A DNA stretch of 64,000 nucleotides from Escherichia phage PECP20, in sequence record OQ873415.1. The stretch is one strand, 5' to 3'. Position numbers and translations under genes: made by a program. Positions within the stretch are counted from its first letter, which is position 1; every line of letters begins with the position of its first letter. Below are positions 8,624 through 40,425 of the stretch, piece by piece. The notes below the pieces were generated by a model. It worked only from the letters and a program-made list of their open reading frames with translations, was not told where the DNA came from and searched no databases.

Positions 8624-9145
8624 TTAGTAACCATTATCCTGACGTTCAAAGTTGTGTTGGTTTTTCAAGTAGTAAAGTTTAAAGATTTCTTCAGCAGAAA
8701 GACCAAGACCTTGGAACATATTTAGAACGAAATGCAGAATATCAATCATTTCAAATTTAATTTCAAGCTGGTCTTCAGGAGACAGTTCATCGATACGACG
8801 ATTTCGATATTCAGCATGTTGTGCTTTCCATGGCTTCCATACACTGCTAGCGGCTTTTTCACCATTGCTCATACCACCAAGTGAAGTCAGCAGTTCACGG
8901 AATTCATCATCAATATAATCTTTCTGATTACGCAGCCAATCAACAACATCACCAGCAGTAGCCAATTCATCAGGATGTTTGTTATGTTCAGGCTTGTCAT
9001 TTGCCAGACGAACCTGTAAAGATTTCTGCATATCAAGCATTACCTGCAGTGGGTCTTTATCTTCGTGAATCAGAGCATTAAAATAAGCTTCTTCTGCTTT
9101 ATCAACACCAGAAATAAGTTGTGAACATTCATTAAAGTGCGCCAT
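8624..9145 (-). CDS. 56: dCTPase/dUTPase (gp56)
   Basis: Strong similarity to T4 gp56 as recalled; start set at MAHFNEC ATG (9145) rather than track start 9160. Confidence 0.9.
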   Translation of the reverse strand: MAHFNECSQLISGVDKAEEAYFNALIHEDKDPLQVMLDMQKSLQVRLANDKPEHNKHPDELATAGDVVDWLRNQKDYIDDEFRELLTSLGGMSNGEKAASSVWKPWKAQHAEYRNRRIDELSPEDQLEIKFEMIDILHFVLNMFQGLGLSAEEIFKLYYLKNQHNFERQDNGY

Positions 9146-9233
9146 TATTTTTCCTTTCAATTCAGTATAAGAGAGTTAATTCTAACATTAATTTTATAAA
9201 GCGTAATAAATAATAGGTAACTAAGGAGATATT

Positions 9234-12184: not shown

Positions 12185-12433
12185 TTATTCTTTTTCGCGA
12201 ATAATAATTACTTGTTGAGGCTGCTGAGCAGATTTCTTTTCGGCAACGATAGACCAAATTAAAGTTCCAATCCAACCAATCATCGTCCAGTTAAAGAGTA
12301 AAGATACAAAGAAGATTGCTGTTGTGCTTTTTGTGCCACGAATAAGTGCGATTACCCAAGGCAACATGTAAATGATGATTGAACCAATACCTGCGATTAA
12401 AACTGCCACTGAACTAGCTACGAATAATTCCAT
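12185..12433 (-). CDS. small integral membrane protein (82 aa)
   Basis: Two to three hydrophobic helices. Confidence 0.6.
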   Translation of the reverse strand: MELFVASSVAVLIAGIGSIIIYMLPWVIALIRGTKSTTAIFFVSLLFNWTMIGWIGTLIWSIVAEKKSAQQPQQVIIIREKE

Positions 12434-12494
12434 GTTAATTTCCTCTTGATTTGTTATGTTTATAATATCTCGTTTTAACTTTGGCGTAAACCAA

Positions 12495-12863
12495 TTAATT
12501 AAATTTGTTTAAACGTTCAATACACTGGACGTAGTTATTCGCGATTTGTTTCTGGGAAGGCTCTTTGCCAGTTGTTTCAACATAGCGAATGAATGCGATT
12601 TCAGTAGCCTGTAAGCAATGTTCTTTAACGCGTTGTTCTTTTGACAATGCTACAGTATCAGAGTCACGATAACGTTGAGCATGGGCATCAGCTTGAATCA
12701 TTCGATTACCTACAGTAACCGGGTCTTCCACTTCGACTTTAGGTTGGTTGTACTGTTTAACATTCGGGTTATAAATCAATTGGCCAACATTATTAGGGAT
12801 AAAGCCATGAGCACCACATCCAGTTAATCCGAATACCATTGCTAAAGCTATTAATTTTTTCAT
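12495..12863 (-). CDS. putative lipoprotein (122 aa)
   Basis: Signal peptide with lipobox LTGC (MKKLIALAMVFGLTGC). Confidence 0.6.
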   Translation of the reverse strand: MKKLIALAMVFGLTGCGAHGFIPNNVGQLIYNPNVKQYNQPKVEVEDPVTVGNRMIQADAHAQRYRDSDTVALSKEQRVKEHCLQATEIAFIRYVETTGKEPSQKQIANNYVQCIERLNKFN

Positions 12864-15613: not shown

Positions 15614-15955
15614 TTAAAAGAATTTAAATTTTTTCTTGGTCCGTTCATTAAAAGCTTGTTGTACTTGCATTGTAACACATTTTTCAACATGTGGTGCAAG
15701 TTCTGCTTTTCTGTCCTGGTCAAGAACTGCAAAGTCCATTACGATTTTACCATCAACCCAGTCTAGTTTTGTAATATAGACTATATGATGAGAACCATCT
15801 TCAAGTGTAATCAGAATCTCTTGAATGACATTTTCCATTGCTGAACGGATAATTTTAAGAGATTCATTAAACACTCGTTCTTTGCGAATGTCTTCCCCTT
15901 CCGAAGAAGGGGATTCATCAACGATTTCTAGATTTAAATCATCGAGATTATTCAT
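15614..15955 (-). CDS. hypothetical protein in the gene 40 position
   Basis: In-frame ATG (MNNLDD) at 15955 overlaps uvsX stop by 8 nt; track start 16075 would sit inside uvsX. Confidence 0.5.
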   Translation of the reverse strand: MNNLDDLNLEIVDESPSSEGEDIRKERVFNESLKIIRSAMENVIQEILITLEDGSHHIVYITKLDWVDGKIVMDFAVLDQDRKAELAPHVEKCVTMQVQQAFNERTKKKFKFF

Positions 15956-17120
15956 CGAAATCTTCCATTTCGTCAAGGTCGTTTTCAATATCTGCTGCAG
16001 ACGGAGCATCAGAAGCTTTAACCGGAACTTTAGTTGTTGCTTTGCAATTAATAAGGTCGTTAACAGCGTCATCAACTTCTTTAATAGAAGAGATAGCGCC
16101 TAGTTTATATTTAGTTTCAATTGCATCTCGGAAAGGTTTGTGTTTAAACAACGGTCCCCAGAATTCTACACAATCAGTAGCTTTAGCACGCCACGATTTC
16201 TCTTCACGAATCATTTCACCTGTTTCTTCGTCAAGGAATTCACGAGCATACCAACCAGCTTTAGGCTTAACAACAAATCCAATTTCAGTTGCCATTTCTA
16301 ACAAGCCACTGAATGGATCGATACCGCCGTCAAAATTAACCGTGATTGGGAAAGTAGATTTCTCTTTAACTGTACGAGATTTTTCTGCTTTCAACGTGAA
16401 GTCATAACCGGTCAATTCTGTACCTTCTTTAACCTGACGTTTAGAGATAAAGAATACAGTGTTAGCAGAGTAAAGAATACCTGTACCACCACCCATAATC
16501 TCTTTAGGATATAGTCCGCCGATTTCCATTGCTGTATGGTTGATTGCAACACACGGAATATCTTTAATAGTCAGATAAGGAGTCACAATACGGAACAGAG
16601 ATTTAAGTGCCTTAGCACGAGACATATCACCTACGACTTTCTCGTTCAATGCATCTTCGGTTTCTTTCTTAGATGCAGTATTACCGATTGAATCGATAAA
16701 GATAATAACTTTATCACCGCGTTCAATAGCGTCAAGCTGATTAGTCATATCAACTTTAAGTTGTTCTACAGATTGAATCGGAGTATGAACTACACGGTCT
16801 AAATCAACACCCATTGAACGAAAATAAGATTCTGAAGCACCGAATTCCGAGTCATAAAACAAACAGATTGCATCTTTATATTTCTTCATATACGCTGCAA
16901 CCATAGTCAGCCCAAACAATGTTTTAAAGTGTTTAGAAGGAGCAGCAAAAATAGTTAAGCCTGATTGCAATCCTGCATTCAGAGCACCACCTAGTGCGAT
17001 ATTCAACATCGGAATACGAGTAGGGACTTCATCACGATTATTAAACAGCTTAGACTTAGTCAAGTCTGCAGTCATTTTAGAAGTAGAAGCTTTAATCAGA
17101 CGAGATTTTAAATCAGACAT
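15948..17120 (-). CDS. uvsX: UvsX recombinase (RecA/Rad51 family)
   Basis: 390 aa; near-colinear with T4 UvsX as recalled. Confidence 0.95.
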   Translation of the reverse strand: MSDLKSRLIKASTSKMTADLTKSKLFNNRDEVPTRIPMLNIALGGALNAGLQSGLTIFAAPSKHFKTLFGLTMVAAYMKKYKDAICLFYDSEFGASESYFRSMGVDLDRVVHTPIQSVEQLKVDMTNQLDAIERGDKVIIFIDSIGNTASKKETEDALNEKVVGDMSRAKALKSLFRIVTPYLTIKDIPCVAINHTAMEIGGLYPKEIMGGGTGILYSANTVFFISKRQVKEGTELTGYDFTLKAEKSRTVKEKSTFPITVNFDGGIDPFSGLLEMATEIGFVVKPKAGWYAREFLDEETGEMIREEKSWRAKATDCVEFWGPLFKHKPFRDAIETKYKLGAISSIKEVDDAVNDLINCKATTKVPVKASDAPSAADIENDLDEMEDFDE

Positions 17121-17218: not shown

Positions 17219-17767
17219 TTAACGAGCCCATTTGATGATTTCTGTAATCAAACCATTACGTTCGCTTGCATTAAATCCTATAATTTTGTTAGCACCATCA
17301 TGATTAAGTAATTGATACGTTTGGATTTTGTTATGAATTGCAAACTCTTCAAAATGTGAAATGACTGTATTAAAACCGAATGAAGACAAAGTAATAAGGT
17401 CGTCTTCAAAACTTTCAGTCATTTCATTACGTGTTAAAATAATTGTGAACACATCATGGTTTTGGCAAAGACGAACATAGTCCTGTTCATAAACATCAAG
17501 AACAGAGTCCGCATCTTGCCGAATACGTCCATAAACCCAGTTACTAATATATCCACGGTCTAACAGATAAATCTTAGTAGGGTCTAAATAATTCAACATC
17601 GTTTCGAAACAGCCAACTTCATTTCGAGACTTAACATCGAAACGTCCATCAACTGTTCGTTTAGGAAAATCAATCTTTACATATCTTTCACTAATTTCCA
17701 TTATGTCATTAATGAAAGTTGTTTTACCAGCATTATCTGGGCCGTCTACTAAAATAATTTTAGCCAT
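17219..17767 (-). CDS. thymidylate-kinase-like P-loop nucleotide kinase
   Basis: 182 aa; P-loop GPDNAGKTT; DRGY...Y lid-like motif; occupies part of the T4 beta-gt slot. Confidence 0.7.
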   Translation of the reverse strand: MAKIILVDGPDNAGKTTFINDIMEISERYVKIDFPKRTVDGRFDVKSRNEVGCFETMLNYLDPTKIYLLDRGYISNWVYGRIRQDADSVLDVYEQDYVRLCQNHDVFTIILTRNEMTESFEDDLITLSSFGFNTVISHFEEFAIHNKIQTYQLLNHDGANKIIGFNASERNGLITEIIKWAR

Positions 17768-17768
17768 T

Positions 17769-18668
17769 TTATTCCTCGATTACGACATCTTCGTATTTAG
17801 GTATATTATATGGTGAAGAAATTAAAGCATTAAAGTAGATGAACTCACCAAGACCTGGATGGAATACTTCTTCAGGATTTTCGAAATATTGAATCTTCGG
17901 GCGTCCTTTAAGAATTTGATAGTACTCAGTTTTAGTTGGTTTAAAAATTCGAATCAGCGCTTCTTCAGGATACTTATTTCTGTCGAAGCTATTATTTGGA
18001 TCGGTTATATAAAGCGGTTGACCTAATTGAATTGCACATTCAACCACTTGTTCAAAACGATAACATGGGTCACTAATTCGAAATGGATGAAAAATACCAT
18101 CTAGATGAATAGGAGCCAAATCACCTACAAGACGCTGCATGATGGAAGGACGTATAACTTTCTGAGTTACGATAATCTTATTACCATCTGCACCTGCGTT
18201 AACCAGCACTTCTTTTTGACGTTCATTCAACACGGTAGTTTGAAGTGAACGATTAACTGACAACATATCGGTTTTTAAGAATTCGTCAATATAAAAACGT
18301 TGTTTATTAGGGTCTGCAGTGATATTGAAATTGAATTCTACATCAAAAGCGCCGCCATAACCAGTGATATCTGTGATTAGAAAATCACAATCATAATAAT
18401 CAATTAATGAATCAACCACAAATTCATTTTCAGTCCAGAAATATTTACGAGTGTTATACGCGTTATCTTTATACCATAATGGAACAAACTTAAATTCTGG
18501 GAAAAGACGTTCGCATTCTTTAATATCAGATGCATTACGTGGATATGTAATCACATCACCCGGATTAGCACGGTGCAAATGAAGTTGGAAGTTGCCATCC
18601 TTAAGGATAGCATACTGTCCAGTTTCATAAGACCGCATACTCAAGATTGGTACGCGGAAAATAGCCAT
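17769..18668 (-). CDS. hypothetical protein (299 aa) in the beta-glucosyltransferase slot
   Basis: ORF between kinase and gene 42 homolog; no similarity to T4 beta-gt recognised. Confidence 0.6.
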   Translation of the reverse strand: MAIFRVPILSMRSYETGQYAILKDGNFQLHLHRANPGDVITYPRNASDIKECERLFPEFKFVPLWYKDNAYNTRKYFWTENEFVVDSLIDYYDCDFLITDITGYGGAFDVEFNFNITADPNKQRFYIDEFLKTDMLSVNRSLQTTVLNERQKEVLVNAGADGNKIIVTQKVIRPSIMQRLVGDLAPIHLDGIFHPFRISDPCYRFEQVVECAIQLGQPLYITDPNNSFDRNKYPEEALIRIFKPTKTEYYQILKGRPKIQYFENPEEVFHPGLGEFIYFNALISSPYNIPKYEDVVIEE

Positions 18669-19384
18669 TAGTCAAGGAATCCTTTAACATAATCAAAATC
18701 ACGTTCAAACACATGGGCGCTTACCATGGTATGAGTATAATCACCAACTTCTACACCGCATTCGTTAGCGATATAATGAAGTAATTTTCCTTGGAGATAA
18801 AAATCCAACTGCATAACAACAGCACAGTTCTGAGAACGCATATGACAGTGGGTATAAAGCTTACCATCACGAATATAATAAGTTACTGAGTCAGTACATG
18901 GATATTCAAGTGTTTCGTCCGAATCAAGCAAAGCCTGATCAGAACTTTCTAGAATTTGGAACACAACTCTTCGAGAGTTAGGTTTTTCTTTAAGTTCTTT
19001 TAGAAGAGTTGGTAATTGGGCCGCAATGCGAGGGCCATAGAAAGTGTTGAAGTTCGCCGGCAAAACATCTGATTTTGGTTTAGAAATAAATTTAGCGACA
19101 TTAGGATATGCCTTAAACGCTTCTTCTGCGTTGGTACCACCAGAAATCATAAACTTCCAGAAGTCTTCGGCATATTCATAAGAGATGCGGTTAATACGTG
19201 GGTCGGTCATTTTGAATGATGATGGAGTGTCAACAACTACTGTCATAGACCCAATTTCATTACAACGTCCAATACGAGAATCAGTTACGAATTCGGGGTT
19301 TTCTAAAATTTCACGATTGACTGCTTTAAATGCGGTTTGAAAATCTGCGGCTTTGATATATTTCATTGTGTTATGTTTTCCCAT
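18668..19384 (-). CDS. 42: dCMP hydroxymethylase-like (thymidylate synthase fold)
   Basis: 238 aa; thymidylate synthase-like core (PCTDSV...MRSQNCAVV); syntenic with T4 gene 42 but diverged. Confidence 0.7.
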   Translation of the reverse strand: MGKHNTMKYIKAADFQTAFKAVNREILENPEFVTDSRIGRCNEIGSMTVVVDTPSSFKMTDPRINRISYEYAEDFWKFMISGGTNAEEAFKAYPNVAKFISKPKSDVLPANFNTFYGPRIAAQLPTLLKELKEKPNSRRVVFQILESSDQALLDSDETLEYPCTDSVTYYIRDGKLYTHCHMRSQNCAVVMQLDFYLQGKLLHYIANECGVEVGDYTHTMVSAHVFERDFDYVKGFLD

Positions 19385-19426
19385 GTTTACCTCAATACAA
19401 TTTATTATATACTCAATTCATAAAGC

Positions 19427-19666
19427 TTATTTGAATTTCTTGACAATGTTGATATAACGTAAAGCTTCAGAATCTATACTTCCAAGAACACTATGAAGGA
19501 ATGCATCAGTGTAGTATTCCAATTGAACAGGTTCTTTAATCACTTTAGCCGCTTTGGTTTCAAACAGGCCCATAAGGGCCTTTTTAAGAATTTGTTCGTT
19601 AGTGTTCAGTTTCATAGTCAAAATCTCTTCGTTAAGTTTATAATTAAAACTTTTTCTAGAAATCAT
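19427..19666 (-). CDS. hypothetical protein (79 aa)
   Basis: ORF; 4-nt overlap with upstream gene. Confidence 0.5.
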   Translation of the reverse strand: MISRKSFNYKLNEEILTMKLNTNEQILKKALMGLFETKAAKVIKEPVQLEYYTDAFLHSVLGSIDSEALRYINIVKKFK

Positions 19667-20823
19667 TCCGGGTACCTCAAAGCGTCATCAGAGTTAGTTA
19701 TATCAATAATAGATATGGAGTTTTCTGCTAACCCGTTTTTAGATAATTGACGTTTATAATACCTTTCACAATATGTACACGTTGACCCACAGATTTCATT
19801 AGCACAATCAAAATCTGGATGTCTGAACCACCTTTTTTCTAAAAAGCCATCTAACAAAGAGGTTTCAATATTTACTGTATGTGAAAACTCAGTCTCATTT
19901 TCAAGAGTGAAAATAGTCTCTAAAGGCTTCCACAGTTCTAACAAATTACCTTCAAACTTTTCAGAAGCGTATGCTTCAAGAACTTTCAAAATGTAGTCTG
20001 TGCTACCTGTACGTCCTGAAACTTTGAATTGAGTGATACCAATATCATTATAAAGTTTCAAATCTTGAGGACGAACAAAACGAGTTCTCAACCAGTTAAA
20101 TGGGTCTGTATCACGAGCTTTAATACAGTGCTGCATAGGATATCCATTTAAGGATTTAGCATCATCAGCGGTAACATCAGTACTATGGAAAATATAGCAA
20201 GAGTCACGATAACTACAATGTGTTGTATACCCTTTACCAGCATTAGAACAGAACTCATTTACAAGAACTTCAAATATTATATTGTTCTTATTGCAAAACT
20301 CTGCTGCACGCTTCAGGAAAGAAACTGAACGGTTCTTATGAATTCCGCAACAGACCTTTTTGATGTTATATTGGTCATGTAAGTATTTGATTTGAGTTAC
20401 CGCATCGACATGTAGAATTGTTGAAACTTCAATCTCAATATCTTTATTGACTTCACGAACAATTTCCATAACAACAGGGTTAGCGATAGTAATACGCCAT
20501 ACGCCTATTGACCAAAGATACTGAACATAATCCTGAATAGCTTTCTTCTTCCACTCAACTAGTTCTCTTTTTGAACCAGGATTTATCGTGTTGAGTGTAT
20601 AGTTAAAGCAAATACCTAATTCGTTACAACGTTTAACGTAGTCTTCTAACATCTTTTTGTCAACGTCAGGAAGCCTAAAATCAGGTCTGGCTGCTACAAA
20701 AGCCATTTCTCTTGTAGAGCCATATACTTCGTTTATCAAGCTATTAGGATAGGTTTTATTGAGCTCTACGATTTTATCAAGAAGAGCTAAATCAAAATTC
20801 GTTCCGATTTTAAAAGTATTCAT
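19663..20823 (-). CDS. hypothetical Cys-rich protein, possible Fe-S enzyme
   Basis: 386 aa; C-terminal C-x4-C-x3-C-x-Y-C cluster plus scattered Cys; family not assigned. Confidence 0.7.
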   Translation of the reverse strand: MNTFKIGTNFDLALLDKIVELNKTYPNSLINEVYGSTREMAFVAARPDFRLPDVDKKMLEDYVKRCNELGICFNYTLNTINPGSKRELVEWKKKAIQDYVQYLWSIGVWRITIANPVVMEIVREVNKDIEIEVSTILHVDAVTQIKYLHDQYNIKKVCCGIHKNRSVSFLKRAAEFCNKNNIIFEVLVNEFCSNAGKGYTTHCSYRDSCYIFHSTDVTADDAKSLNGYPMQHCIKARDTDPFNWLRTRFVRPQDLKLYNDIGITQFKVSGRTGSTDYILKVLEAYASEKFEGNLLELWKPLETIFTLENETEFSHTVNIETSLLDGFLEKRWFRHPDFDCANEICGSTCTYCERYYKRQLSKNGLAENSISIIDITNSDDALRYPE

Positions 20824-20879
20824 TTTTTTGCATCTCGCGTTAATTGATGCGATGGTTTTTGCAGGTCTTACTTAAATTA

Positions 20880-21281
20880 TTATAGATTTGGTTTATATGA
20901 TTTAAATGTTTCGAATTCGCCTTTATTCATAAGAGCTTTGAATTCGTCAGGACGCATAGCTTTGTCGTCGATAATCCAATCATATACTGGTTTATGTGTT
21001 AGCAAATTATGGTACTTCAAACCAATGTTTTCCAAGTTCTGAATCAGACTTGGGAGAATGTCAATTGCTATACGACCAGGACCTACCGACTTCATACCAC
21101 GGGCAGTGTAAAGCGTTATGGTATGCCCTGCATCATACAGGGCATTAATGGCAGACACCATTTCGACGTCTGGTTTGAAGTTCACGTAATCACGATTGTT
21201 ATTCCACTCTGTTATACAATCATCGACATCAAAACAAAGATTAAGCATGTTTTCTACACGGTGCATTAGATTCGTTCCCAT
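20880..21281 (-). CDS. HAD-superfamily phosphatase (sugar-phosphate phosphatase-like)
   Basis: 133 aa; N-terminal FDVDDCIT (DxD nucleophile motif). Confidence 0.65.
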   Translation of the reverse strand: MGTNLMHRVENMLNLCFDVDDCITEWNNNRDYVNFKPDVEMVSAINALYDAGHTITLYTARGMKSVGPGRIAIDILPSLIQNLENIGLKYHNLLTHKPVYDWIIDDKAMRPDEFKALMNKGEFETFKSYKPNL

Positions 21282-22951
21282 TGATGAGTGATATCGCCGC
21301 CGATTGGACGATAGGAAACACCAGTTTCTTTATCAGTTAGTACCCATTTACCAGGATTTTTTGTAATCAGAGTAGCCGTTACAGGTTCTGCTACGTCATA
21401 ACTAATAGAGCCGTCTTGAAGTACACGGCCCATGTTACGTAATTGCTTAGTCAGAAGTTCCATACCTTTATAATATGCGGCAACCGCTTTAAGTGGATTA
21501 TTCTTGAAATAACCACCTAATGCAATCCAGATAATTGCTACTGCCAAATGATGATACTCGTTAAACGAACTCATCTTTCCATATTTGTAAACTAATGGAT
21601 TGATGTTAATAGTCAAATTACAAGTTGTTTCATCAATAGTAAACTGACCCCAGGTCGGATTAGCATTGAATTCATCATAACCTGAAACAGCATAAAGCAC
21701 TTTAGCTTCATCATACAATTTTGGCCCGTAAATCTTGGTTTCACCAAAATATCCACGAGGGTCGATAAACTTGACTTCGCCGTTATCGGTAATCATAGTA
21801 TTACTGAAGTTCGGGTCACCATGAATAACAGAGTACTGTCCCTGAGAACGGTTATGATAACGAATAAGATGTTCTAAAGCTTGTTTCAACATTGGCTTCA
21901 GACGTCCAATCTTAGTGTAGTTCACATGTGTGATTTTACCAAATGAATCAATCAATGGCTGAATGCTTTCACAACGATCAATAACTTTCGTATAGAACTC
22001 TTTAGTGAAATCACGGCGAACAGTTTCAGGACTTACAAAATAAGTGTCCGTGCTGAATTTCAGTGCATCTAAAATTGCATCAACAATTTGTGGACGAGCA
22101 AGACTTGATTTGGATTTAATATATTCAAATGCCGGCTTACCTTTAATACGTTCCATTTCAAAATTATTTTCATTTACCGAAACTAACTGAGGAACTGAAT
22201 CTGATTTCACTTTCAAATACCATGAAATCTCATCTTTTTGAAGAGCTCGACCTTGTTCGGTTAACGCGAATTTAGTTACAGTTTCTTCGCCAATTTCAAC
22301 TGCATTAAAACTACGATTCAGTTCACGAACTTCATGAGCCTTTTCAAGTTTAGGCATATCACCTAAATCAATTAGATTCATAAGCTCTGATTTATTGAAT
22401 GCACTGCCGTAAAGGAATTCTACGAAATCACGACCTTTGCAGTATTCGTGAATTTCCTCATCAGTAGAACCCATGTAGAATTCCCAGTCTTTGAACTGAT
22501 AAATTCCTACAACATTACCACCTGTTGAACCTACGTTAGTGATATTTTCACCATCGAAATTATATCGACATTCATCACCCTTAACATAGATTGCGTTAAC
22601 ATTCCAAGACCATGAACCAAAGTCAGGAATAATATCACACCAGTTAACAATTACGTTATGGCCATCTAAATCTTTGTATAATTTAGCAAGAGCATAAGCA
22701 GAACCATACGCTTCATCAACTGTACGAATAGTCACATTGAACCCTTCTTGCTCGCAATAAGCTCGAACAGTTTCAGCAAATTTTGAATGAACTACTACAA
22801 TAATTTCATCTGCGCCAAGGTCAGAATAAATTGTATACAAATTGCTCAGAATAGTGTCTTGTTTATAGTTAACAAGCACCTTAGGAATATGGTGAGTAAT
22901 TGGATATAAACGAGTTGCTAATCCAGCACCAAGAATAACAGCTTTTTTCAT
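21266..22951 (-). CDS. bifunctional sugar-1-phosphate nucleotidyltransferase / APH-type sugar kinase
   Basis: 561 aa; N-terminal MKKAVILGAGLATRLYP (RmlA-like); C-terminal HGDPNFSN...IDPRG (aminoglycoside/choline-kinase-like). Confidence 0.8.
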   Translation of the reverse strand: MKKAVILGAGLATRLYPITHHIPKVLVNYKQDTILSNLYTIYSDLGADEIIVVVHSKFAETVRAYCEQEGFNVTIRTVDEAYGSAYALAKLYKDLDGHNVIVNWCDIIPDFGSWSWNVNAIYVKGDECRYNFDGENITNVGSTGGNVVGIYQFKDWEFYMGSTDEEIHEYCKGRDFVEFLYGSAFNKSELMNLIDLGDMPKLEKAHEVRELNRSFNAVEIGEETVTKFALTEQGRALQKDEISWYLKVKSDSVPQLVSVNENNFEMERIKGKPAFEYIKSKSSLARPQIVDAILDALKFSTDTYFVSPETVRRDFTKEFYTKVIDRCESIQPLIDSFGKITHVNYTKIGRLKPMLKQALEHLIRYHNRSQGQYSVIHGDPNFSNTMITDNGEVKFIDPRGYFGETKIYGPKLYDEAKVLYAVSGYDEFNANPTWGQFTIDETTCNLTININPLVYKYGKMSSFNEYHHLAVAIIWIALGGYFKNNPLKAVAAYYKGMELLTKQLRNMGRVLQDGSISYDVAEPVTATLITKNPGKWVLTDKETGVSYRPIGGDITHQWERI

Positions 22952-22993
22952 GTTGAAGTCCTCATTGGTAAGTAGGTGTATTGTACACTATTC

Positions 22994-23136
22994 TAGTTAA
23001 AGCATTCATACTTTGCCTGTAGACCAATCATAATCCATCCAATTACAAGTGTTGGAATCATTACTGGAGCCGTTAAGCCCCAGTAGATAGTCATGGCAAG
23101 CATCAATAGTAAAAGTCCTATTGTTATTGCTTTCAT
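22994..23136 (-). CDS. small hydrophobic peptide (47 aa)
   Basis: ATGA overlap with stop of upstream SIS gene; hydrophobic; below ORF-track size cutoff. Confidence 0.35.
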
Positions 23137-23768
23137 TGTTCGCCTCGTAACATGGCACCTAGTGCACCACCAGGGTGGAACTTAAGGAAGTCATTAGAGG
23201 TAAATCCACGTTCAGACGAAAGGTTGATAGCAAACGTATCGATAAGCGCTAACAACAATGTAGTGGACATGGTCGGAGCCAGAGAATTCTCATCAACCTC
23301 TACCGCGATGCCTGTACAGAACGTATAATCAAAAAGAGCTTCGTATTCTTGCGGAATGTCAGGGTTACAATGTAACAGAATCTGTTTAACCTGAGGACGA
23401 ATCATACGAAGATGTTTAGCAACACCTATCATTTCTTCAGTCTTACCAGAACGACTGATGTGAACTAATACATCATTAGGTGCAATAAATCCTGCGTCGC
23501 CATGAGAATAATGCCCGGTGTTCAAATACATGCTAGGAATACCTAGTGAAGCAAAAGTCTCGGAAGCTTTAGTTGCGATATTAGCGTTCTTACCAACACC
23601 TGTAATAATTACTCGGCTTTCATAATTACTCAGTCCAGGGCGACGAAGAGTTTCAAGAATAGCATTATATCGGGCAGAGTTTTGACTAATTACTTTAGCC
23701 ATAGTGGCAAGAGATGAAGCTTGTTTTACGATTGCGTCAATAGCGATAGTGATTGGTGTAGTTTTCAT
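23133..23768 (-). CDS. SIS-domain sugar-phosphate isomerase (arabinose-5-phosphate isomerase-like, no CBS domains)
   Basis: 211 aa; ITGVGKNANIATK...HGDAG...ISRSGKT...HPGGALG closely resembles KdsD/GutQ SIS domain. Confidence 0.8.
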   Translation of the reverse strand: MKTTPITIAIDAIVKQASSLATMAKVISQNSARYNAILETLRRPGLSNYESRVIITGVGKNANIATKASETFASLGIPSMYLNTGHYSHGDAGFIAPNDVLVHISRSGKTEEMIGVAKHLRMIRPQVKQILLHCNPDIPQEYEALFDYTFCTGIAVEVDENSLAPTMSTTLLLALIDTFAINLSSERGFTSNDFLKFHPGGALGAMLRGEQ

Positions 23769-23808: not shown

Positions 23809-26520
23809 TCAAAAATCGAACATATCGAACAGAGATGCTTTCTTCTCGTAATCGAGTTTCGCTGCTGATGTGAATCCTTCAAGTGGTTTAATAAATGTCT
23901 TCTCAAGGAGAACAGTGTAGTCCATCCAATGAAGTACGTCGTCTTTAATTAAATCTGTGATTTCAGTACCAGAAGGCCATGCGATACATTTATCACCGAA
24001 CGGGTTTCCATCACGTAAAGGCAGAACGTATACCTTTTCGCCTTCTACAACTTGTGGAGCATCAATATTACCTTTGATAGCTCTGTTATATGTCAGAATT
24101 CCACGAATATGGAACGGGCATTTAGGACCAGGGAATCCACCAACGTCATATTTAGCAATGTTATTCGCAGAAGATACTGACGCGATGCTAATATAATTCA
24201 ATTGACGGAATTCTTTTTCAAACTCTTTAAAATATTCTTGTAATGATTCTTCACCTTCTTGAAGCATACGACGAATACATTCTTTAAGAGCTTTCTGTAC
24301 TGCTTTAGGGGTCGAAGATTTCTGTGTTTCGAGACCCATGATTTTGAGTTTAGGCTCAGCGTATCTGGTTCCTTCCATATCCCACACGTTTAATGCATAA
24401 CGTTTCTTACCAGTCCAGAATCCACCAATACCTTTAGAACCGAGTGGAGGACCAGCAATAGCTTCTCGGTCCATGAACATCAAATGTTGCTTATTATTCA
24501 TGTATTCACACATTTCACGGAAACCTCTATCAATAGCCGGTTCCATACGTTCACGAGCGAACTTATCTAAGAAGTCTACCCAATGGTTGGTATCACGGAA
24601 TTTAGATTCACCAACCTTATCAATAATTTTATCTGCAGATACGTAAATAGAGTCTGTATCACCATAAAGAACGAAAGCTTCACCTTCTGTACCACAAACT
24701 TCGTTCAGATATTCATTAACTTTACGTTCAATCCACTGTAAAGCCATTTGACCAAATGTTGTGATTGCAGTTGCATTACGCAAATCGTAATAACGGAACC
24801 AAACGTTACCAAGTGCACCATAAAGCGAGTTGATGAGCAATTTACGGTTAATTTGTGCAGTCATACCTGCAACTTCAGTACGTTGAGCTCTAAACAACAT
24901 TTCATTAAGAGATTTAGCAGACAACTTTTTAATCTTTTCTTTAATCTCATCGCTGAAGTCGAAACGATAATCAACATCTAATGGTTCGTCAACAGAAAGA
25001 TTAGGATTATGCAACGCCTCTTTAATTATTTCACCATTACGTTGAGCCGCAAGCATGTAACCTTTATGTTCTTTACGTTGATTAAAGACCTTAGTGATTT
25101 CAGTTGGAACTACACCATCACGGTCTTTATAATACATCATGCCATTAGGAGAACAACTGTACACATCTGAAGGACGTTCAGCGATTGCGTTAATATAATC
25201 ATGCAGTGGAGCTACTTTAAACGTTCCTGCTATTGTTTCCGGGCTAATATTCACTTGGCGAATAATACTTGGATACAGGGATGTAAGGTCGAAACTCATT
25301 ACATATTTGTATCGATTTGGAATAGGTTCCTTAACAAAAGCGCCAGGATAAGGTTGAACCGGGTGAGAACGACCTTGTGGAATCACCTTGTTCTGCTCTT
25401 TAAGGCTATTAAAAATAATAGCATCCCATGTTTTAATTGGGCTAAACACAGATTGAATCTGTATCTTAGCATAATAACCCATGTCCAAACTCAAGTTGAT
25501 GAACTGACGCTTAGCATCAATTTGCAATACACGATACACGTCGATAATGTTATAAGAAATATATCGTTGGTGATTGCTTTCACGAAGCTTAGAAATAGGG
25601 CCGTCATATTTCAGTTTACCAACGTTCAATTCAAATTCTGAAATGTAATCCAGAGAATACGACGGTTGATTGGTAAAAGAGAATTTTTTGTAAAGGTCAA
25701 TGTAATCAAGAACAGAGATACCGAACAATGTAATGATTTCACGAGAACCATACATGTTTTCGATAACTTTAACACGAGTTTTACGATGTGGTGATAAACG
25801 TTTTGCTGTGGATTCACCAAAAATATTCTTGATTCTGTTATACACATATGGAATATCAAATGACTCAACGTTCCATCCAGTCAAAATGACAGGAGTTTTC
25901 TGTTGCCAGAAGTTGAGATATTCCATCAACAATTCTTTTTCGTTATCGAACGGCATATAAATGATTTTATCGATAATTTCGGATGGAACTTCATCACCAC
26001 CTTGTTCTTGAAGCTTAGCAGCGATTTCAATAGACCATTCTTCTACATTACCATATGGAGAATTCAATAGATCAAATACGTAGAACCTGTCGTCAATTGA
26101 GTCATAATGAGTGATAGCATCAATCGGATGTTTTGCTTGTGACGGCTCAGGGAACCCATCCGGAGATGTTACTTCGATGTCGAAGTTAGCCACACGAATT
26201 TTTGTATGGTCGTATTTGATTTCATAGTTATAAGTGTCAGACAAATACGCCAATTTGAAATCGTCCATGCCAAGTGCTTCAAGTCCGATATCTTCCATGC
26301 GTTTAATCCATTGGGAGGCATCACGCATATTAGCGAACAACTTACGAGTACACGGCTTACCGTAGATATCGAAATATTTCGTAGCCTGACTTTCTGGACA
26401 ATGTGCAAACAACGATGGCTTATACTCTACTTCACGAGTACGTTCACGGCCATTAGAATCGATGTAACGTTCAAAAATTGAATCACCAATCTGTTCAACC
26501 GTTAAGTAAAATTCTTTCAT
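23809..26520 (-). CDS. 43: DNA polymerase (family B, gp43)
   Basis: 903 aa; exo motifs (FDIEV), polymerase motifs (DxxSLYPSII, YGDTDS); N-terminus matches RB69 gp43 as recalled. Confidence 0.98.
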   Translation of the reverse strand: MKEFYLTVEQIGDSIFERYIDSNGRERTREVEYKPSLFAHCPESQATKYFDIYGKPCTRKLFANMRDASQWIKRMEDIGLEALGMDDFKLAYLSDTYNYEIKYDHTKIRVANFDIEVTSPDGFPEPSQAKHPIDAITHYDSIDDRFYVFDLLNSPYGNVEEWSIEIAAKLQEQGGDEVPSEIIDKIIYMPFDNEKELLMEYLNFWQQKTPVILTGWNVESFDIPYVYNRIKNIFGESTAKRLSPHRKTRVKVIENMYGSREIITLFGISVLDYIDLYKKFSFTNQPSYSLDYISEFELNVGKLKYDGPISKLRESNHQRYISYNIIDVYRVLQIDAKRQFINLSLDMGYYAKIQIQSVFSPIKTWDAIIFNSLKEQNKVIPQGRSHPVQPYPGAFVKEPIPNRYKYVMSFDLTSLYPSIIRQVNISPETIAGTFKVAPLHDYINAIAERPSDVYSCSPNGMMYYKDRDGVVPTEITKVFNQRKEHKGYMLAAQRNGEIIKEALHNPNLSVDEPLDVDYRFDFSDEIKEKIKKLSAKSLNEMLFRAQRTEVAGMTAQINRKLLINSLYGALGNVWFRYYDLRNATAITTFGQMALQWIERKVNEYLNEVCGTEGEAFVLYGDTDSIYVSADKIIDKVGESKFRDTNHWVDFLDKFARERMEPAIDRGFREMCEYMNNKQHLMFMDREAIAGPPLGSKGIGGFWTGKKRYALNVWDMEGTRYAEPKLKIMGLETQKSSTPKAVQKALKECIRRMLQEGEESLQEYFKEFEKEFRQLNYISIASVSSANNIAKYDVGGFPGPKCPFHIRGILTYNRAIKGNIDAPQVVEGEKVYVLPLRDGNPFGDKCIAWPSGTEITDLIKDDVLHWMDYTVLLEKTFIKPLEGFTSAAKLDYEKKASLFDMFDF

Positions 26521-38140: not shown

Positions 38141-38611
38141 TTAATCATGTTTCCACACCCCATCGGTATTTGACCAAAGTCGCTGATTATCTGATCCTCG
38201 CCACAGCTTTTTGGTCGGAAGATTTTTCTCATACTTCCCATCAATAATAACATCAACATATTTAAGCATTTCTAGCTGTTTAATATCTTCAAACTTATAT
38301 CCTGTCCACAACCAAATGCTTTTATTGGGATAAAGATTTTTAATAGTTTGAACTACAGAGTGAATAACATCTCGGTTATCAGGATAGAGAGGGTCTCCTC
38401 CGGTTATAGTCAATCCTTCTATATAATCATTATTCAAACATTCAATTAATTGTTCTAGTGTTTCACCAGTGAATGGAATACCATTTCTAGCATTCCATGT
38501 TGATTTATTATAACACCCTTCGCATTTATGCAAACAACCTGTAACGAAAAGAACGACCCTGCAACCAGGGCCATTAACAAAATCGCAAGGATAAAATCTA
38601 TCATAATTCAT
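38141..38611 (-). CDS. nrdG: anaerobic ribonucleotide reductase activating protein (radical SAM)
   Basis: 156 aa; CLHKCEGC radical SAM motif; directly downstream of nrdD. Confidence 0.9.
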   Translation of the reverse strand: MNYDRFYPCDFVNGPGCRVVLFVTGCLHKCEGCYNKSTWNARNGIPFTGETLEQLIECLNNDYIEGLTITGGDPLYPDNRDVIHSVVQTIKNLYPNKSIWLWTGYKFEDIKQLEMLKYVDVIIDGKYEKNLPTKKLWRGSDNQRLWSNTDGVWKHD

Positions 38612-40425
38612 TGGTGTTTAACCCTATGCATGATTTCTTTATTTTTACCGAGATTAAATCCGCGTTCGTTCGGATTTCCCAAATAACCGCATGTCCTTCT
38701 TATAGTGTTCATCTTTTTAGGATCAGTTTCTCCACAAACTGAACAAACAAATCCGTTTTCAGTAGGAGTCATTTCATGAGTACTTCCACACGTAAAACAT
38801 TTATCTACTGGCATATTAACACCAAAATAATCTAAATGTTGTGCAGCATAATCCCACACGGCCTCAAGACCTTTTAGGTTATTTTTCATATCAGGAAGTT
38901 CAACATAAGAAATGTGACCACCTGTCGCAATGAAATGATATGGCGCTTCACGAGAAATCTTTTCAAACGGAGTAATATTTTCTTCTACTGAAACGTGGAA
39001 ACTATTAGTGTACCAGCCTTTATCGGTAACATCTTTTACGCTTCCATATTTTTCTGTATCAAGTTTACAGAAACGATAACACAAGTTTTCAGCAGGAGTA
39101 GAATATAAACTAAAAGCAAATCCAGTTCTTTCGGTCCACTGTTTAAGATGAGCATTCATTTTAGTTAAAATTTCTTGCCCAATATCACGACCGACAAGAA
39201 TATTCAATTCGTGAATACCAATGTATCCCAAAGACACTGAACTTCTACCGTTTTTAAATAACTCAATTATATCGTCGTCAGGTTTAAGACGAACCCCAAA
39301 TGCACCTTCTTGGTAAAGAATAGGAGCAACAGTCGCTTTAACTCCTTTTAAGGAACTAATTCTACACATCAAGGCTTCAAAGCACAGATCCATTCGTTCA
39401 TTAAATAACTCAACAAATTTCTGTTCATTGAACTGTGTTCCAATATAAGAATCTAACGCGATGCGAGGAAGATTCAGTGTTACAACACCGAGATTATTAC
39501 GTCCATCAAGAATTTCATTACCAGTCGAATCTTTCCATACACTCAAGAAACTACGGCAACCCATTGGAGAAACTGGAACTGAAGAACCAGTAATAGCTTT
39601 ATTATTCTTAACCGAAATAATGTCAGGATACATTCTTTTGCTTGCACATTCTAACGCAAGTTGTTTAATATCATAGTTCGGATCATCTTTATAAAGATTA
39701 ACACCTTCTTCAACAAACATAACAAGTTTAGGAAAAATAGGAGTTATTCCATCACGACCAAGACCTTTAATCCGATTTTTCAGAATTGCTTTCTGAATCA
39801 TTCGTTCGGTCCAATCAGTTCCAGTACCAAATGTAATTGTTACAAAAGGCGTTTGCCCGTTTGAACTAAAAAGAGTATTTACCTCATACTCATAAGCTTG
39901 AAATGCGTCATATACATCTTTTTCTGTTTTAGATTGAGCATAATTCAGAATGTCTGGTATTTGCCATTTTTCTGCATCTTCAACATGTTTAGCGTATGTA
40001 CGTTTAACATAAGGAGAAAGAACTTTATCGACATTCGCAAATGTAGTTCCGCCGTACTGATGTGAAGCAACTTGTGCAGTAATTTGTGCCATAATTGCAG
40101 TAGCAACACCAATCGATTTAGGCGTTTCAATTTGAGCATTGCCCAATTTAAATCCGTTCTCAAGCATCCCCTTTAAATCGACTAAACAGCAATTGGTAAA
40201 CGGAAGAGCAGGAGAATAATCAATATCATGCATGTGGATAATTCCACTTTCATGCGCATTCATAATAAAAGACGGGACCATATTTTTGGCAATGTGCTTA
40301 GACACAATACCAGCCATAAGGTCCCGTTGAGTTGGAAAAACACGAGAATCTTTATTAGCATTCTCGTTCAAAAGATCTTTATTAGTTTTATAAATTAATC
40401 CTTCAATTTCTTTTTCAATTTTCAT
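38608..40425 (-). CDS. nrdD: anaerobic ribonucleoside-triphosphate reductase (glycyl radical enzyme)
   Basis: 605 aa; C-terminal glycyl radical motif RRTCGYLG and Zn-ribbon cysteines. Confidence 0.95.
   Translation of the reverse strand: MKIEKEIEGLIYKTNKDLLNENANKDSRVFPTQRDLMAGIVSKHIAKNMVPSFIMNAHESGIIHMHDIDYSPALPFTNCCLVDLKGMLENGFKLGNAQIETPKSIGVATAIMAQITAQVASHQYGGTTFANVDKVLSPYVKRTYAKHVEDAEKWQIPDILNYAQSKTEKDVYDAFQAYEYEVNTLFSSNGQTPFVTITFGTGTDWTERMIQKAILKNRIKGLGRDGITPIFPKLVMFVEEGVNLYKDDPNYDIKQLALECASKRMYPDIISVKNNKAITGSSVPVSPMGCRSFLSVWKDSTGNEILDGRNNLGVVTLNLPRIALDSYIGTQFNEQKFVELFNERMDLCFEALMCRISSLKGVKATVAPILYQEGAFGVRLKPDDDIIELFKNGRSSVSLGYIGIHELNILVGRDIGQEILTKMNAHLKQWTERTGFAFSLYSTPAENLCYRFCKLDTEKYGSVKDVTDKGWYTNSFHVSVEENITPFEKISREAPYHFIATGGHISYVELPDMKNNLKGLEAVWDYAAQHLDYFGVNMPVDKCFTCGSTHEMTPTENGFVCSVCGETDPKKMNTIRRTCGYLGNPNERGFNLGKNKEIMHRVKHQ

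Follow-up and report, generated by a model that had tools for sequence, protein, structure and literature searches.

An arabinosyl-5-hydroxycytosine DNA modification cluster in Escherichia phage PECP20 and a candidate second route to its 5-hydroxyl group

In the 64,000-nucleotide stretch of Escherichia phage PECP20 that we analysed (OQ873415.1; hereafter the window), the ORF list places ten closely packed minus-strand ORFs between uvsX (15948-17120) and the gene for DNA polymerase (23809-26520). This block is very probably the arabinosyl-5-hydroxycytosine (ara-5hoC) DNA hypermodification cluster of RB69-like Mosigvirus. The main finding is already known, since the pathway has been published for RB69, HY126 and LC53 and near-identical orthologs of its proteins have been characterised. 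What is new is a lead concerning one member of the block, a U32-family protein that, by analogy with characterised relatives, we are somewhat inclined to regard as a candidate enzyme for hydroxylating (deoxy)cytosine at C5 with prephenate and without O2, which would open another route to the 5-hydroxyl.

The gene block and its position

That the block is a product of chance can be dismissed: 151 phage records match 80% or more of the 7-kb stretch – the best being p000v, an Escherichia phage of the genus Mosigvirus, at 99.2% DNA identity – and its base composition is close to that of the remainder of the window. The six proteins listed in a preliminary description of this DNA all proved to be intact minus-strand ORFs within 17219-23768; two small ORFs, of 79 aa (19427-19666) and 47 aa (22993-23136), were absent from that list. 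The 47-aa minus-strand ORF is hydrophobic and predicted to be membrane-located; it lies between the isomerase and AfhE-like genes, overlaps the former by 4 nt, and has an annotated counterpart at the same position in p000v and LC53 ('transmembrane segment(s)' in LC53).

Gene order in T4 is uvsX-segA-beta-gt-42-imm-imm.1-43. The placement of beta-gt between uvsX and 42, and of imm between 42 and 43, in the preliminary description was thus correct, and comparison with this order bears out the proposal that the module fills the beta-gt and imm slots. In p000v, imm is annotated away from the block, close to dmd and sp. From the interpretation first placed on these genes, the modification module, the slots, the arabinose and the dCTPase survive; the hydroxymethylcytosine (hmC) base does not.

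The modified base and its arabinose

RB69 DNA contains mono- and di-arabinosyl-5-hydroxycytosine, the arabinose being ether-linked directly at C5 (NMR, MS; Lee et al. 2026, PMC13326640), and in the published pathway every cytosine in the phage DNA is replaced by arabinose-decorated 5-hydroxycytosine. The published chemistry and enzymology cover RB69, DLP3 and HY126 (PMC13326640); together with orthology they uphold the earlier view of the block as a DNA hypermodification module with arabinose as its sugar. Evidence against the main pathway is essentially nil.

Central to the assignment is the gene 42 homolog (18668-19384, minus strand; RB69 gp48 equivalent), identified through Pfam, PDB and alignment to T4 gp42. 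The encoded protein has a thymidylate-synthase (ThyA) fold (Pfam Thymidylat_synt, 57.2 bits) and shares ~98% of its residues with the phage enzyme that has been crystallised (PDB 9IQC/9IR2/9IQU; E 3e-160 over its full length to 9IQC/9IR2). Alignment of 'RSQNCAVVMQLD' in the window with 'RSNDVVFGFRND' in T4 reveals D169N and N177D (E. coli ThyA numbering), the D169-equivalent position being N in the window ('RSQN') and D in T4 ('RSND'). The alignments also show L143E, which completes the signature of 5-hydroxy-dCMP (5hodCMP) synthases, of which D169N is the marker (Lee et al., PMC13326640); a catalytic Cys and the Asp that selects dCMP are present as well ('YPC' and '...QLD', aligning with 'PCH' and '...PFN' of TS). 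By orthology to characterised enzymes, then, the protein is a 5-hydroxy-dCMP synthase, predicted to be FMN/O2-dependent. RB69 gp48 makes 5-hydroxy-dCMP from dCMP and O2, as established by 18O2 labelling, and contains bound flavin; cofactor and oxygen source are demonstrated for gp48 and cited for HY126 (PMC13326640).

The preliminary description took the DNA to be probably hmC-based and mentioned arabinosyl-hmC as reported for RB69. A gene-42 hydroxymethylase would in that case make hmC, and the module would add arabinose to the hydroxymethyl group. Homology to T4 gp42 (E 3e-13), the label dCMP hydroxymethylase in many GenBank records, and the proposal of ara-hmC for RB69 in 2018 (PMC6024577) all lend themselves to such a reading. 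It is nonetheless highly improbable: NMR and MS of RB69 DNA and in vivo 18O2 assays give 5-hydroxycytosine with ether-linked arabinose, which refutes it for RB69 (PMC13326640), and the 2018 assignment has been called erroneous (PMC13390438). We likewise rejected a gp42-type dCMP hydroxymethylase as the identity of the window protein, given just 25% identity to gp42 and the diagnostic replacement of Asp by N. The claimed gene 42 homolog is therefore real as a ThyA-fold gene, but encodes a 5-hydroxy-dCMP synthase instead of a dCMP hydroxymethylase.

The claim that a dCTPase (gene 56) is present also held: the ORF lies outside the block (8624-9160, minus strand) and matches Pfam dUTPase_2 at 29 bits. 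Its p000v ortholog is annotated as a nucleoside triphosphate pyrophosphohydrolase, and RB69p028 is entered as dCTPase (PMC13326640).

Synthesis of UDP-arabinofuranose (UDP-Araf) is accounted for by three proteins, and the expectation that activated arabinose is a product of the phage itself, beginning with a KdsD-type isomerase, was well founded. The first is a 211-aa SIS-domain D-arabinose-5-phosphate isomerase (23133-23768, minus strand; RB69 gp55 equivalent; Pfam SIS, 38.8 bits), with PDB matches to 3ETN (E 1e-24), 5UQI and the SIS domain of E. coli KdsD (2XHZ, E 2e-18); its step, ribulose-5-P to arabinose-5-P, is a computational assignment (PMC13326640). The second is a 561-aa nucleotidyltransferase–kinase fusion (21266-22951, minus strand; AfhE, RB69 gp52:53 equivalent). 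Its N-terminal half matches Pfam NTP_transferase (PF00483, 38.4 bits, residues 3-99; PF12804, 30 bits) and carries a 'GAGLATRL' motif; 1JYK is the fusion's sole sequence match in the PDB. The predicted kinase half has sub-threshold matches to Fructosamin_kin (16.9 bits), EcKL (16.1) and APH (14.1), those of the APH/fructosamine-kinase type at residues 308-409, and a catalytic-loop-like motif, 'HGDPNFSN'; for this domain a structural match to 3HAM is reported (Lee et al., PMC13326640). HY126 AfhE is cited as an arabinose-5-phosphate 1-kinase and UDP-arabinofuranose pyrophosphorylase (PMC13326640). The third is a 133-aa HAD-type phosphatase (20880-21281, minus strand; AfhF, RB69 gp51 equivalent) with the DxD motif 'FDVDDCIT', matching PDB 9IQW (E 4e-87) and 1XPJ (E 1.5e-10); its HY126 ortholog converts arabinofuranose-1,5-bisphosphate to arabinofuranose-1-phosphate (function cited in PMC13326640).

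The 299-aa protein (17769-18668, minus strand; RB69 gp46:47 equivalent), previously thought an orphan, is a compact glycosyltransferase: its two Rossmann-like domains match GT-B/GT4 enzymes. We propose it as the putative first DNA arabinosyltransferase (UDP-Araf to 5hoC). Beside it lies a Tmk-like P-loop nucleotide kinase (17219-17767, minus strand; RB69 gp45 equivalent). Pfam returned no significant match for the Tmk-like, 299-aa or HAD proteins.

On the combined evidence the pathway would run as follows. The ThyA-fold enzyme would convert dCMP to 5-hydroxy-dCMP with flavin and O2, the phage's dNMP kinase, product of a gene (gene 1) that lies outside the window, would phosphorylate it, and DNA polymerase would incorporate the modified nucleotide instead of C – steps that are experimental in near-identical orthologs. 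By excluding dCTP from the pool, the dCTPase would leave the modified form as the sole cytosine nucleotide for incorporation. In parallel, the SIS isomerase would supply arabinose-5-P; the kinase half of the fusion would yield Araf-1,5-P2, the HAD phosphatase Araf-1-P, and the nucleotidyltransferase half UDP-Araf, these three steps again being experimental in near-identical orthologs. The 299-aa enzyme would then place the first arabinose on the 5-hydroxyl, and the second would presumably be added by another transferase, whose gene lies near rIIA and beyond the window.

Could the block instead serve host metabolism, as an auxiliary module for making LPS or capsule (Kdo/arabinose)? The SIS protein does resemble KdsD and capsule isomerases, and both PDB 9IQW and the LC53 annotation give the HAD ortholog the name 'capsule biosynthesis protein'. 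But the arabinose sits on the DNA itself, replication genes surround the block, which includes the synthase and a DNA-type glycosyltransferase, and nucleoside analyses of RB69 and Mosigvirus NP contradict the idea, to which we attach next to no probability.

The U32 protein

The Cys-rich 386-aa protein (19663-20823, minus strand; RB69 gp50 equivalent) exists as described and carries 13 Cys; it was given no role, and we assign it to the U32 family as a predicted Fe-S protein. It matches Pfam Peptidase_U32 (PF01136) at 42.2 bits (cutoff 22.4), and its AlphaFold model (pLDDT 93.7), a TIM barrel, has the U32 protein 5D88 as top PDB fold match (E 2e-7). Ten Cys are invariant across 121 homologs, among them the U32-motif pair C203/C209 and the C-terminal motif C340-x4-C-x3-C-x2-C352 (C340/C345/C349/C352). 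C203/C209 align with the Fe-S ligands C169/C176 of UbiU and with the RlhA motif 'LCVAYSGQCY', the conserved Cys of the U32 motif being essential in RlhA; as judged from these alignments, the U32 Fe-S cysteines are retained.

Lee et al. label the protein 'sugar or heterocycle reductase' in their Table 1 (PMC13326640), and assign a step neither to it nor to the 79-aa protein; He et al. 2026 and Mahler et al. 2025 may assign or exclude a role for the U32 protein. Our suggestion is that it would hydroxylate C5, taking the oxygen from prephenate in the way that RlhA, TrhP and UbiU/V do, the candidate substrate being dCMP, another nucleotide or DNA. Production of 5-hydroxycytidine in rRNA by RlhA requires both prephenate and Fe-S clusters (PMC5727448); TrhP is the counterpart of the O2-dependent TrhO, with a need for prephenate but not for O2 (PMC6599085); and for UbiU/V the oxygen donor is prephenate (PMC10990095).

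Genes neighbouring the U32 gene in relatives, namely CM_2 or DAHPS-CM genes, suggest a link to prephenate. An AroQ chorismate mutase gene (Pfam CM_2, 41-45 bits, cutoff 27) lies between the U32 and synthase genes in 56 phage records from ~15 host genera; it is present in 14 of the 17 U32-bearing T4-like loci and was not found in the two U32-less loci examined. On unrelated phage contigs, U32 homologs (44-58% identity) stand beside fusions of DAHP synthase and chorismate mutase (L041, L044, L054), beside stand-alone DAHP synthase (L029, L012), or, in L062, beside a stand-alone chorismate mutase with a rhamnose-type sugar gene in place of the arabinose genes. The DAHP_synth_1 family also takes in KDO8P synthases, which use arabinose-5-P.

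This window has no chorismate mutase, so prephenate would have to come from PheA/TyrA of the host. The 79-aa minus-strand ORF, whose start overlaps the U32 stop by 4 nt, was considered as an AroQ chorismate mutase and rejected, having no CM_2 or NCBIfam match and an hhalign probability of 0.1% against the phage CM family. It belongs to PHROG 8601, and its homologs occur only in Mosigvirus, Yersinia, Pectobacterium and Serratia 92A1 phages, always directly after the U32 gene; in some phages it stands in tandem with a true chorismate mutase gene, which marks the two as separate genes.

Two other roles have to be weighed. One places the U32 protein on the sugar side of the pathway, with no part in cytosine hydroxylation. 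The gene has the sugar-activation genes on one side and the synthase gene on the other, the TIM barrel is common to many sugar enzymes, the published label allows a sugar substrate, the record of the BASEL-collection phage ChristianSchoenbein reads 'enzyme involved in UDP-arabinose biosynthesis', and the DAHP/KDO8P-synthase-family neighbour in some loci could use arabinose-5-P. That neighbour's fusion to chorismate mutase, however, points to the shikimate branch and not to Kdo. The published UDP-Araf route, moreover, is complete without the U32 protein (PMC13326640); Acinetobacter phage Maestro, for which arabinosylated 5hodC is reported (PMC13326640), and the Dhakaviruses have the sugar genes without it; L062 combines U32 and chorismate mutase genes in the absence of arabinose genes; and the characterised U32 proteins are implicated in hydroxylation (PMC10990095, PMC5727448, PMC6599085), none being known to act on sugars. 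We consider a sugar-side role unlikely.

The other makes the protein a mere passenger: an RNA hydroxylase of the RlhA/TrhP kind, or a protease, acting on host or phage RNA or protein. RlhA is indeed its best E. coli match (hhalign probability 83%, a modest value from a single-sequence template), with poor similarity to UbiU and TrhP, and the U32 family was first described as collagenases (PMC5727448). Yet the protein is without the DUF3656 and C-terminal extensions of RlhA; at least six unrelated phage architectures keep it beside nucleotide kinases, dCMP deaminase, glycosyltransferases and sugar-nucleotide genes; and in every related locus it is conserved as well as the synthase or better (82-89% versus 74-82% identity), and within the module no protein is better conserved. 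A passenger role is accordingly a shade less probable still than one in sugar metabolism.

The reading as a C5 hydroxylase can also be set against wider gene distribution. Of 29 distant viral loci with a U32 gene, 21 have a homolog of the 299-aa glycosyltransferase nearby, 15 one of the nucleotidyltransferase/kinase, 8 one of the SIS isomerase, and only one a ThyA-family gene; with further U32 homologs the coupling is to genes for dCMP deaminase, Tmk, NT5C and dNK. The gene occurs in 221 phage records, whose hosts are all Enterobacterales or Shewanella: among phage isolates, it is confined to phages of facultative anaerobes. None of the synthase-bearing phage records from Acinetobacter (57), Rhizobium (22), Tenacibaculum or Sphingomonas is among the 221. 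A scan of 100,044 species genomes gave only eight U32 loci, and every one is in an assembly that bears the name of an anaerobic taxon (Romboutsia, Lachnospiraceae, Erysipelotrichales, Phocaeicola, Tannerella, Bacillota and BRC1, which we take to be anaerobes). The correlation with host lifestyle is one-sided, because Dhakaviruses infect E. coli with synthase, sugar genes and transferase but no U32 gene; the absence from Acinetobacter phages may reflect a single phylogenetic event.

If the hydroxylase reading is true, the U32 enzyme would allow the only usable cytosine nucleotide still to be made in an anaerobic infection, where lack of O2 stops the synthase. A phage so equipped could make its 5-hydroxycytosine base in the anoxic gut; nrdD and nrdG are both encoded in the window.

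Relationship to known systems

The block has the same genes in the same order as the RB69/HY126/LC53/DLP3 pathway ('Afh' genes; Lee et al. NAR 2026, He et al. Nat Chem Biol 2026, Mahler et al. Cell Host Microbe 2025). Its synthase and HAD protein are near-identical to crystallised phage proteins and nothing material differs; the second arabinosyltransferase and the dNMP kinase of that pathway lie outside the window.

With the T4 glucosyl-hmC system (gp56, gp42, gp1, alpha-gt, beta-gt) the block shares its slots between uvsX and gene 43 and its logic: a dCTPase, a ThyA-fold dCMP modifier, a kinase, incorporation by polymerase, and transfer of sugar onto a hydroxyl. The chemistry differs. T4 uses a folate-derived hydroxymethyl group and host UDP-glucose, whereas in the window type the hydroxyl is set directly on C5 by flavin/O2 chemistry and arabinofuranose comes from a phage-made donor; T4 beta-gt is unrelated in sequence to the 299-aa transferase. 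The isomerase shares SIS domain and assigned reaction with KdsD/GutQ, but consists of the SIS domain only, and what it makes goes into DNA modification instead of Kdo. Tandem CBS domains are a further feature of KdsD; Pfam reported none in the window SIS protein.

The phage U32 protein shares domain and fold with the hydroxylases RlhA (ho5C2501, 23S rRNA), TrhP (ho5U34, tRNA) and UbiU/UbiV (anaerobic ubiquinone). With RlhA it has in common the U32-motif Cys pair and C-terminal cysteines, and the RlhA product, 5-hydroxycytosine, is the same base as in the phage pathway. Genomic coupling to prephenate-making enzymes is likewise shared between U32 prephenate hydroxylases and the phage homologs. 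The latter nonetheless form a separate, compact subfamily (~360-390 aa) with ten invariant Cys and a C-terminal Cx4Cx3Cx2C; they differ from RlhA, TrhP and UbiU/V in having no RNA-binding extension and no UbiT-like partner, and in adjoining deoxynucleotide genes in phages.

A parallel is TrhO/TrhP of E. coli, in which an O2-dependent and a U32/prephenate enzyme make one 5-hydroxypyrimidine, an arrangement seen as adaptation to oxic and anoxic conditions (PMC6599085). The ThyA-like synthase and the U32 protein would, as a putatively redundant pair, be its DNA-precursor analogue, the O2-dependent partner being a flavin-using ThyA-fold enzyme in the phage and the rhodanese TrhO in E. coli.

Gene content between uvsX and the DNA polymerase gene

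The window belongs to a Mosigvirus, a T4-type phage resembling RB69; a 7-kb region spanning the block of interest is 99.2% identical to Escherichia phage p000v, and at least 80% of this region is covered in 151 phage records. Between uvsX (15948-17120) and the DNA polymerase gene (23809-26520) lie nine to ten minus-strand ORFs, most of which abut or overlap by a few bases. They encode a P-loop Tmk-like protein (17219-17767), a 299-aa protein (17769-18668), a ThyA-fold protein (18668-19384), a 79-aa ORF (19427-19666; PHROG 8601), a cysteine-rich 386-aa protein of the U32 family (19663-20823), a 133-aa HAD-like protein (20880-21281), a 561-aa nucleotidyltransferase/kinase fusion (21266-22951), a strongly hydrophobic 47-aa ORF (22993-23136) and a 211-aa SIS protein (23133-23768). 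The ORFs confirm the six-protein block that the preliminary description placed at 17219-23768, and its statement that T4 slots had been replaced is correct: the T4 order at this place is uvsX-segA-beta-gt-42-imm-imm.1-43. Since near-identical p000v has imm annotated beside dmd and sp, and not between genes 42 and 43 as in T4, imm has been displaced by the module rather than replaced; from p000v 131527-131775 its position in the window would be approximately 12390-12640. We rejected recent horizontal acquisition of the block because its composition is that of the rest of the window and its gene order is kept across many genera.

Two further observations concern the surroundings. The 47-aa ORF separates the isomerase (SIS) gene from the nucleotidyltransferase/kinase gene – an odd placement for a membrane peptide, within a nucleotide-sugar operon – and an ORF is annotated at the same position in p000v and in the Serratia phage LC53. 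Elsewhere in the window an RlaP-family protein (a pol-beta-like nucleotidyltransferase of the RNA-repair pathway) and a DUF7235 protein (400 bits) are encoded at 48365-49354 and 43889-44848, both on the minus strand, with several 316-333-aa ORFs lacking a Pfam match nearby.

The chemistry to which the block belongs is already published, and the finding as first reported is therefore not new. In RB69 and the Acinetobacter phage DLP3 all cytosine is converted to mono-, di- or tri-arabinosyl-5-hydroxycytosine, the arabinose being attached to C5 via an ether oxygen; RB69 gp48, a ThyA homolog with which FMN co-purifies, converts dCMP to 5-hydroxy-dCMP (5hodCMP) using oxygen from 18O2 (Lee et al. 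2026, PMC13326640). An older arabinosyl-hydroxymethyl assignment, dating from 2018, has been termed erroneous, and the same nucleosides occur in another Mosigvirus (PMC13390438). The ThyA-fold protein of the window matches PDB 9IQC/9IR2 over its full length (E 3e-160), shares 25% identity with T4 gp42 (RSQN...QLD in the window, RSND...RND in T4) and carries, together with N177D, the D169N change that Lee et al. regard as diagnostic of 5hodCMP synthases (PMC13326640). The HAD protein matches PDB 9IQW (E 4e-87) and the SIS protein matches the arabinose-5-phosphate isomerases 3ETN, 5UQI and 2XHZ; in phage HY126, AfhE (kinase plus pyrophosphorylase) and AfhF (phosphatase) take arabinose-5-phosphate to UDP-arabinofuranose (He et al. 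2026, as cited in PMC13326640). A dCTPase (gene 56) homolog is present, as first described, at 8624-9160; the genes for the second arabinosyltransferase and the dNMP kinase fall outside the window. The original reading of arabinosyl-hydroxymethylcytosine thus holds in part: the sugar and its synthesis by the phage were correctly called, but the base is 5-hydroxycytosine (5hoC), and the supposed gene 42 homolog is the 5hodCMP synthase. That arabinosyl-5hoC confers resistance to many restriction enzymes and alters visibility to defence systems is likewise published; phages carrying the module are common phage-therapy candidates.

The U32 protein and the chemistry of its family

A critical issue is the function of the U32 protein. 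Its RB69 equivalent, gp50, is described by Lee et al. only as a "sugar or heterocycle reductase", and the RlhA and TrhP pathways are cited there as unrelated pyrimidine hydroxylations (PMC13326640); yet RlhA and TrhP are both U32 proteins. Formation of 5-hydroxycytidine in 23S rRNA requires RlhA, which depends on prephenate and Fe-S clusters and whose C-terminal cysteines are essential (PMC5727448). TrhP, which is active anaerobically, depends on prephenate; its counterpart TrhO depends on O2 (PMC6599085). Prephenate is the oxygen donor of UbiU/V (PMC10990095).

Ten cysteines are invariant in 121 homologs of the phage U32 protein. Alignment places C203 and C209 at Fe-S ligand positions of UbiU and within the RlhA motif, and a C-terminal motif, C340-x4-C345-x3-C349-x2-C352, recalls the essential C-terminal cysteines of RlhA. 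In no related locus compared is the synthase better conserved than the U32 protein. Its predicted structure is a confident TIM barrel, for which a Foldseek search of the PDB returned only the uncharacterised U32 protein 5D88, the best match, and generic TIM barrels; sequence and profile searches of the PDB gave no meaningful match. Against a role in hydroxylation stands the distance from characterised members: profile similarity is modest to RlhA and weak to UbiU and TrhP. An NCBIfam scan gave only a weak UbiU match (18.5 bits against a cutoff of 440). Seen by itself, the invariant C-x4-C-G-x2-C-x-Y-C of residues 340-352 holds a Cx3Cx(aromatic)C pattern like the cluster motif of radical-SAM enzymes, here located C-terminally in a U32 TIM barrel; it may bind a second [4Fe-4S] cluster or zinc.

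Taking family chemistry, gene neighbourhood and distribution together, we lean, if only by a hair, towards a hydroxylase role for the protein. That the phage proteins constitute a new subfamily of pyrimidine C5 hydroxylases that depend on prephenate but not on O2, and that act on DNA precursors or on DNA, is a proposal we hold to be evenly balanced.

Chorismate mutase and other neighbours of U32 genes

Between their U32 and synthase genes, the Serratia phage LC53 and the Enterobacter phage Entb_45 each have a small gene for a genuine AroQ chorismate mutase (CM; CM_2 scores of 44.6 and 40.9 bits, cutoff 27). A tblastn search found CM in 56 phage records from approximately 15 host genera, nearly always between these two genes. 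It is present in 14 of 17 U32-bearing T4-like loci and missing from both U32-less ones (Acinetobacter phage Maestro and one Dhakavirus). There is, however, no CM in the window, and this speaks against the proposal. Maestro and the Dhakavirus vB_EcoM_005 retain genes for the synthase, glycosyltransferase, kinase, HAD protein and nucleotidyltransferase/kinase while lacking U32, CM and the 79-aa ORF; in Maestro the HAD gene directly abuts that of the synthase.

Because the 79-aa ORF of the window occupies the position of the CM of Entb_45 and LC53, it was checked as a degenerate CM. This was rejected: it has no CM_2 or NCBIfam match, hhalign gives a probability of 0.1%, and Yersinia, Pectobacterium and Serratia 92A1 phages carry both genes next to each other. 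The ORF belongs to a separate family that is found only in these and in Mosigvirus phages, has a conserved Y-x-DAF-x-HS-x-x-G core and is in every case coupled translationally to U32; its product might act together with the U32 enzyme.

Members of the U32 subfamily with 44-58% identity occur in many unrelated phage contigs. Among 29 distant loci, viewed over 6 kb each side of U32 and counted within 4 kb of it, 21 have a homolog of the 299-aa glycosyltransferase, 15 one of the nucleotidyltransferase/kinase and eight one of the SIS isomerase; only one has a ThyA-family gene. Three IMG/VR phage contigs carry, adjacent to or near the U32 homolog, a fusion (DAHPS-CM) in which a DAHP synthase domain (89-125 bits) precedes a CM domain (39-72 bits), at L041:4411-5433, L044:4321-5376 and L054:7079-8197. 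In two further loci (L029 and L012) the gene that immediately follows U32 encodes a stand-alone DAHP-synthase-family protein, and in another (L062) a stand-alone 94-aa CM lies beside U32. Tempering the link to prephenate, the DAHP_synth_1 family also includes KDO8P synthases. This association of U32 with CM and DAHP-synthase partners is the point of remaining interest, the rest of the pathway having been published; the accessible literature – in which He et al. 2026 and Mahler et al. 2025 were not covered – holds no prior statement of a link between U32, these partners and prephenate for such phages.

Other neighbours concern nucleotides. In two very large phage-like contigs with split PolIII-alpha genes (L003, 466 kb; L013, 60 kb) a dCMP deaminase gene precedes U32 and is translationally coupled to it – in L003 with a 4-nt overlap – and Tmk, UDG and SSB genes lie nearby; one further homolog sits among genes for NT5C, a deoxynucleoside kinase and a nucleoside deoxyribosyltransferase. 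In a 61-kb phage contig (L014, 4777-13179) the 299-aa glycosyltransferase homolog overlaps U32 from upstream, and genes for a TAGT-like glycosyltransferase, a dUTPase/DCD-family protein and UDP-galactopyranose mutase follow; its called genes include no ThyA-family Pfam match, and it may represent a different glycosyl-5-hydroxypyrimidine system. A family directly upstream of U32 in distant loci (famX208) was considered as an equivalent of the HAD phosphatase and found unsupported: hhalign gives a probability of 1.5%, and the two have in common only a DCDG DxD-like motif.

In BRC1, Phocaeicola, Tannerella and Bacillota assemblies (L066:2810-4141, L068:2936-4213, L004 and L063) a guanylate-kinase-like/SAM-methyltransferase fusion (Pfam-confirmed in L066 and L068) and an uncharacterised protein of 265-282 aa are encoded ahead of the U32 homolog. 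The arrangement resembles the ho5U-to-mo5U logic of TrhP and TrmR, and by this analogy such loci might specify 5-methoxy-pyrimidine deoxynucleotides.

A proposed second, oxygen-independent route to the 5-hydroxyl

The characterised route to 5hoC needs O2, yet this is a gut phage that encodes an anaerobic ribonucleotide reductase: nrdG (156 aa, the radical-SAM activase) and nrdD (605 aa) lie at 38141-40425 on the minus strand, adjoined by an endonuclease VII gene (40422-40895). Because dCTPase removes dCTP and the sole characterised hydroxylase needs O2, anaerobic replication would stall without a second route.

The distribution of U32 bears on this question. The gene was found in 221 phage records, whose hosts all belong to Enterobacterales or Shewanella; synthase homologs occur also in phage records from Acinetobacter (57), Rhizobium (22), Tenacibaculum and Sphingomonas, genera absent from the U32 list. 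On the other side, the absence from Acinetobacter phages may reflect one evolutionary event, and Dhakaviruses, which infect E. coli, lack U32. The distribution of NrdD was considered as a proxy for an anaerobic lifestyle and dropped: the search returned 2913 records, from which no per-genus figure could be drawn for Acinetobacter. When 100,044 species were scanned, with one genome apiece, U32 loci numbered only eight, all in assemblies whose names denote anaerobic taxa: Romboutsia (two), Lachnospiraceae, Erysipelotrichales, Bacillota, Phocaeicola, Tannerella and BRC1, each of which we take to be anaerobic.

We propose that the U32 protein would hydroxylate C5 of a cytosine deoxynucleotide, or possibly of cytosine in DNA, without O2, with prephenate as the oxygen donor and one or more Fe-S clusters transferring electrons; CM and DAHPS-CM genes would make more prephenate available. 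In RB69-like phages it would serve as a backup during anaerobic infection, when the ThyA-like synthase would be idle, and would avert the stall in replication; where the host is a strict anaerobe, the 5-hydroxyl handle would come from it alone, to be decorated by glycosyltransferases and possibly methyltransferases. If correct, the proposal would link a U32 enzyme to DNA for the first time and would give a reason for shikimate-pathway genes in phages. U32-less relatives such as the Dhakaviruses would depend on O2 for modification, which bears on the choice of therapeutic phages. It would also offer a small, tractable enzyme for a family whose chemistry, to our knowledge, has never been reconstituted. 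The proposed pairing of an O2-dependent synthase with a U32 protein would mirror two known dual systems: TrhO with TrhP, and UbiIHF with UbiUV.
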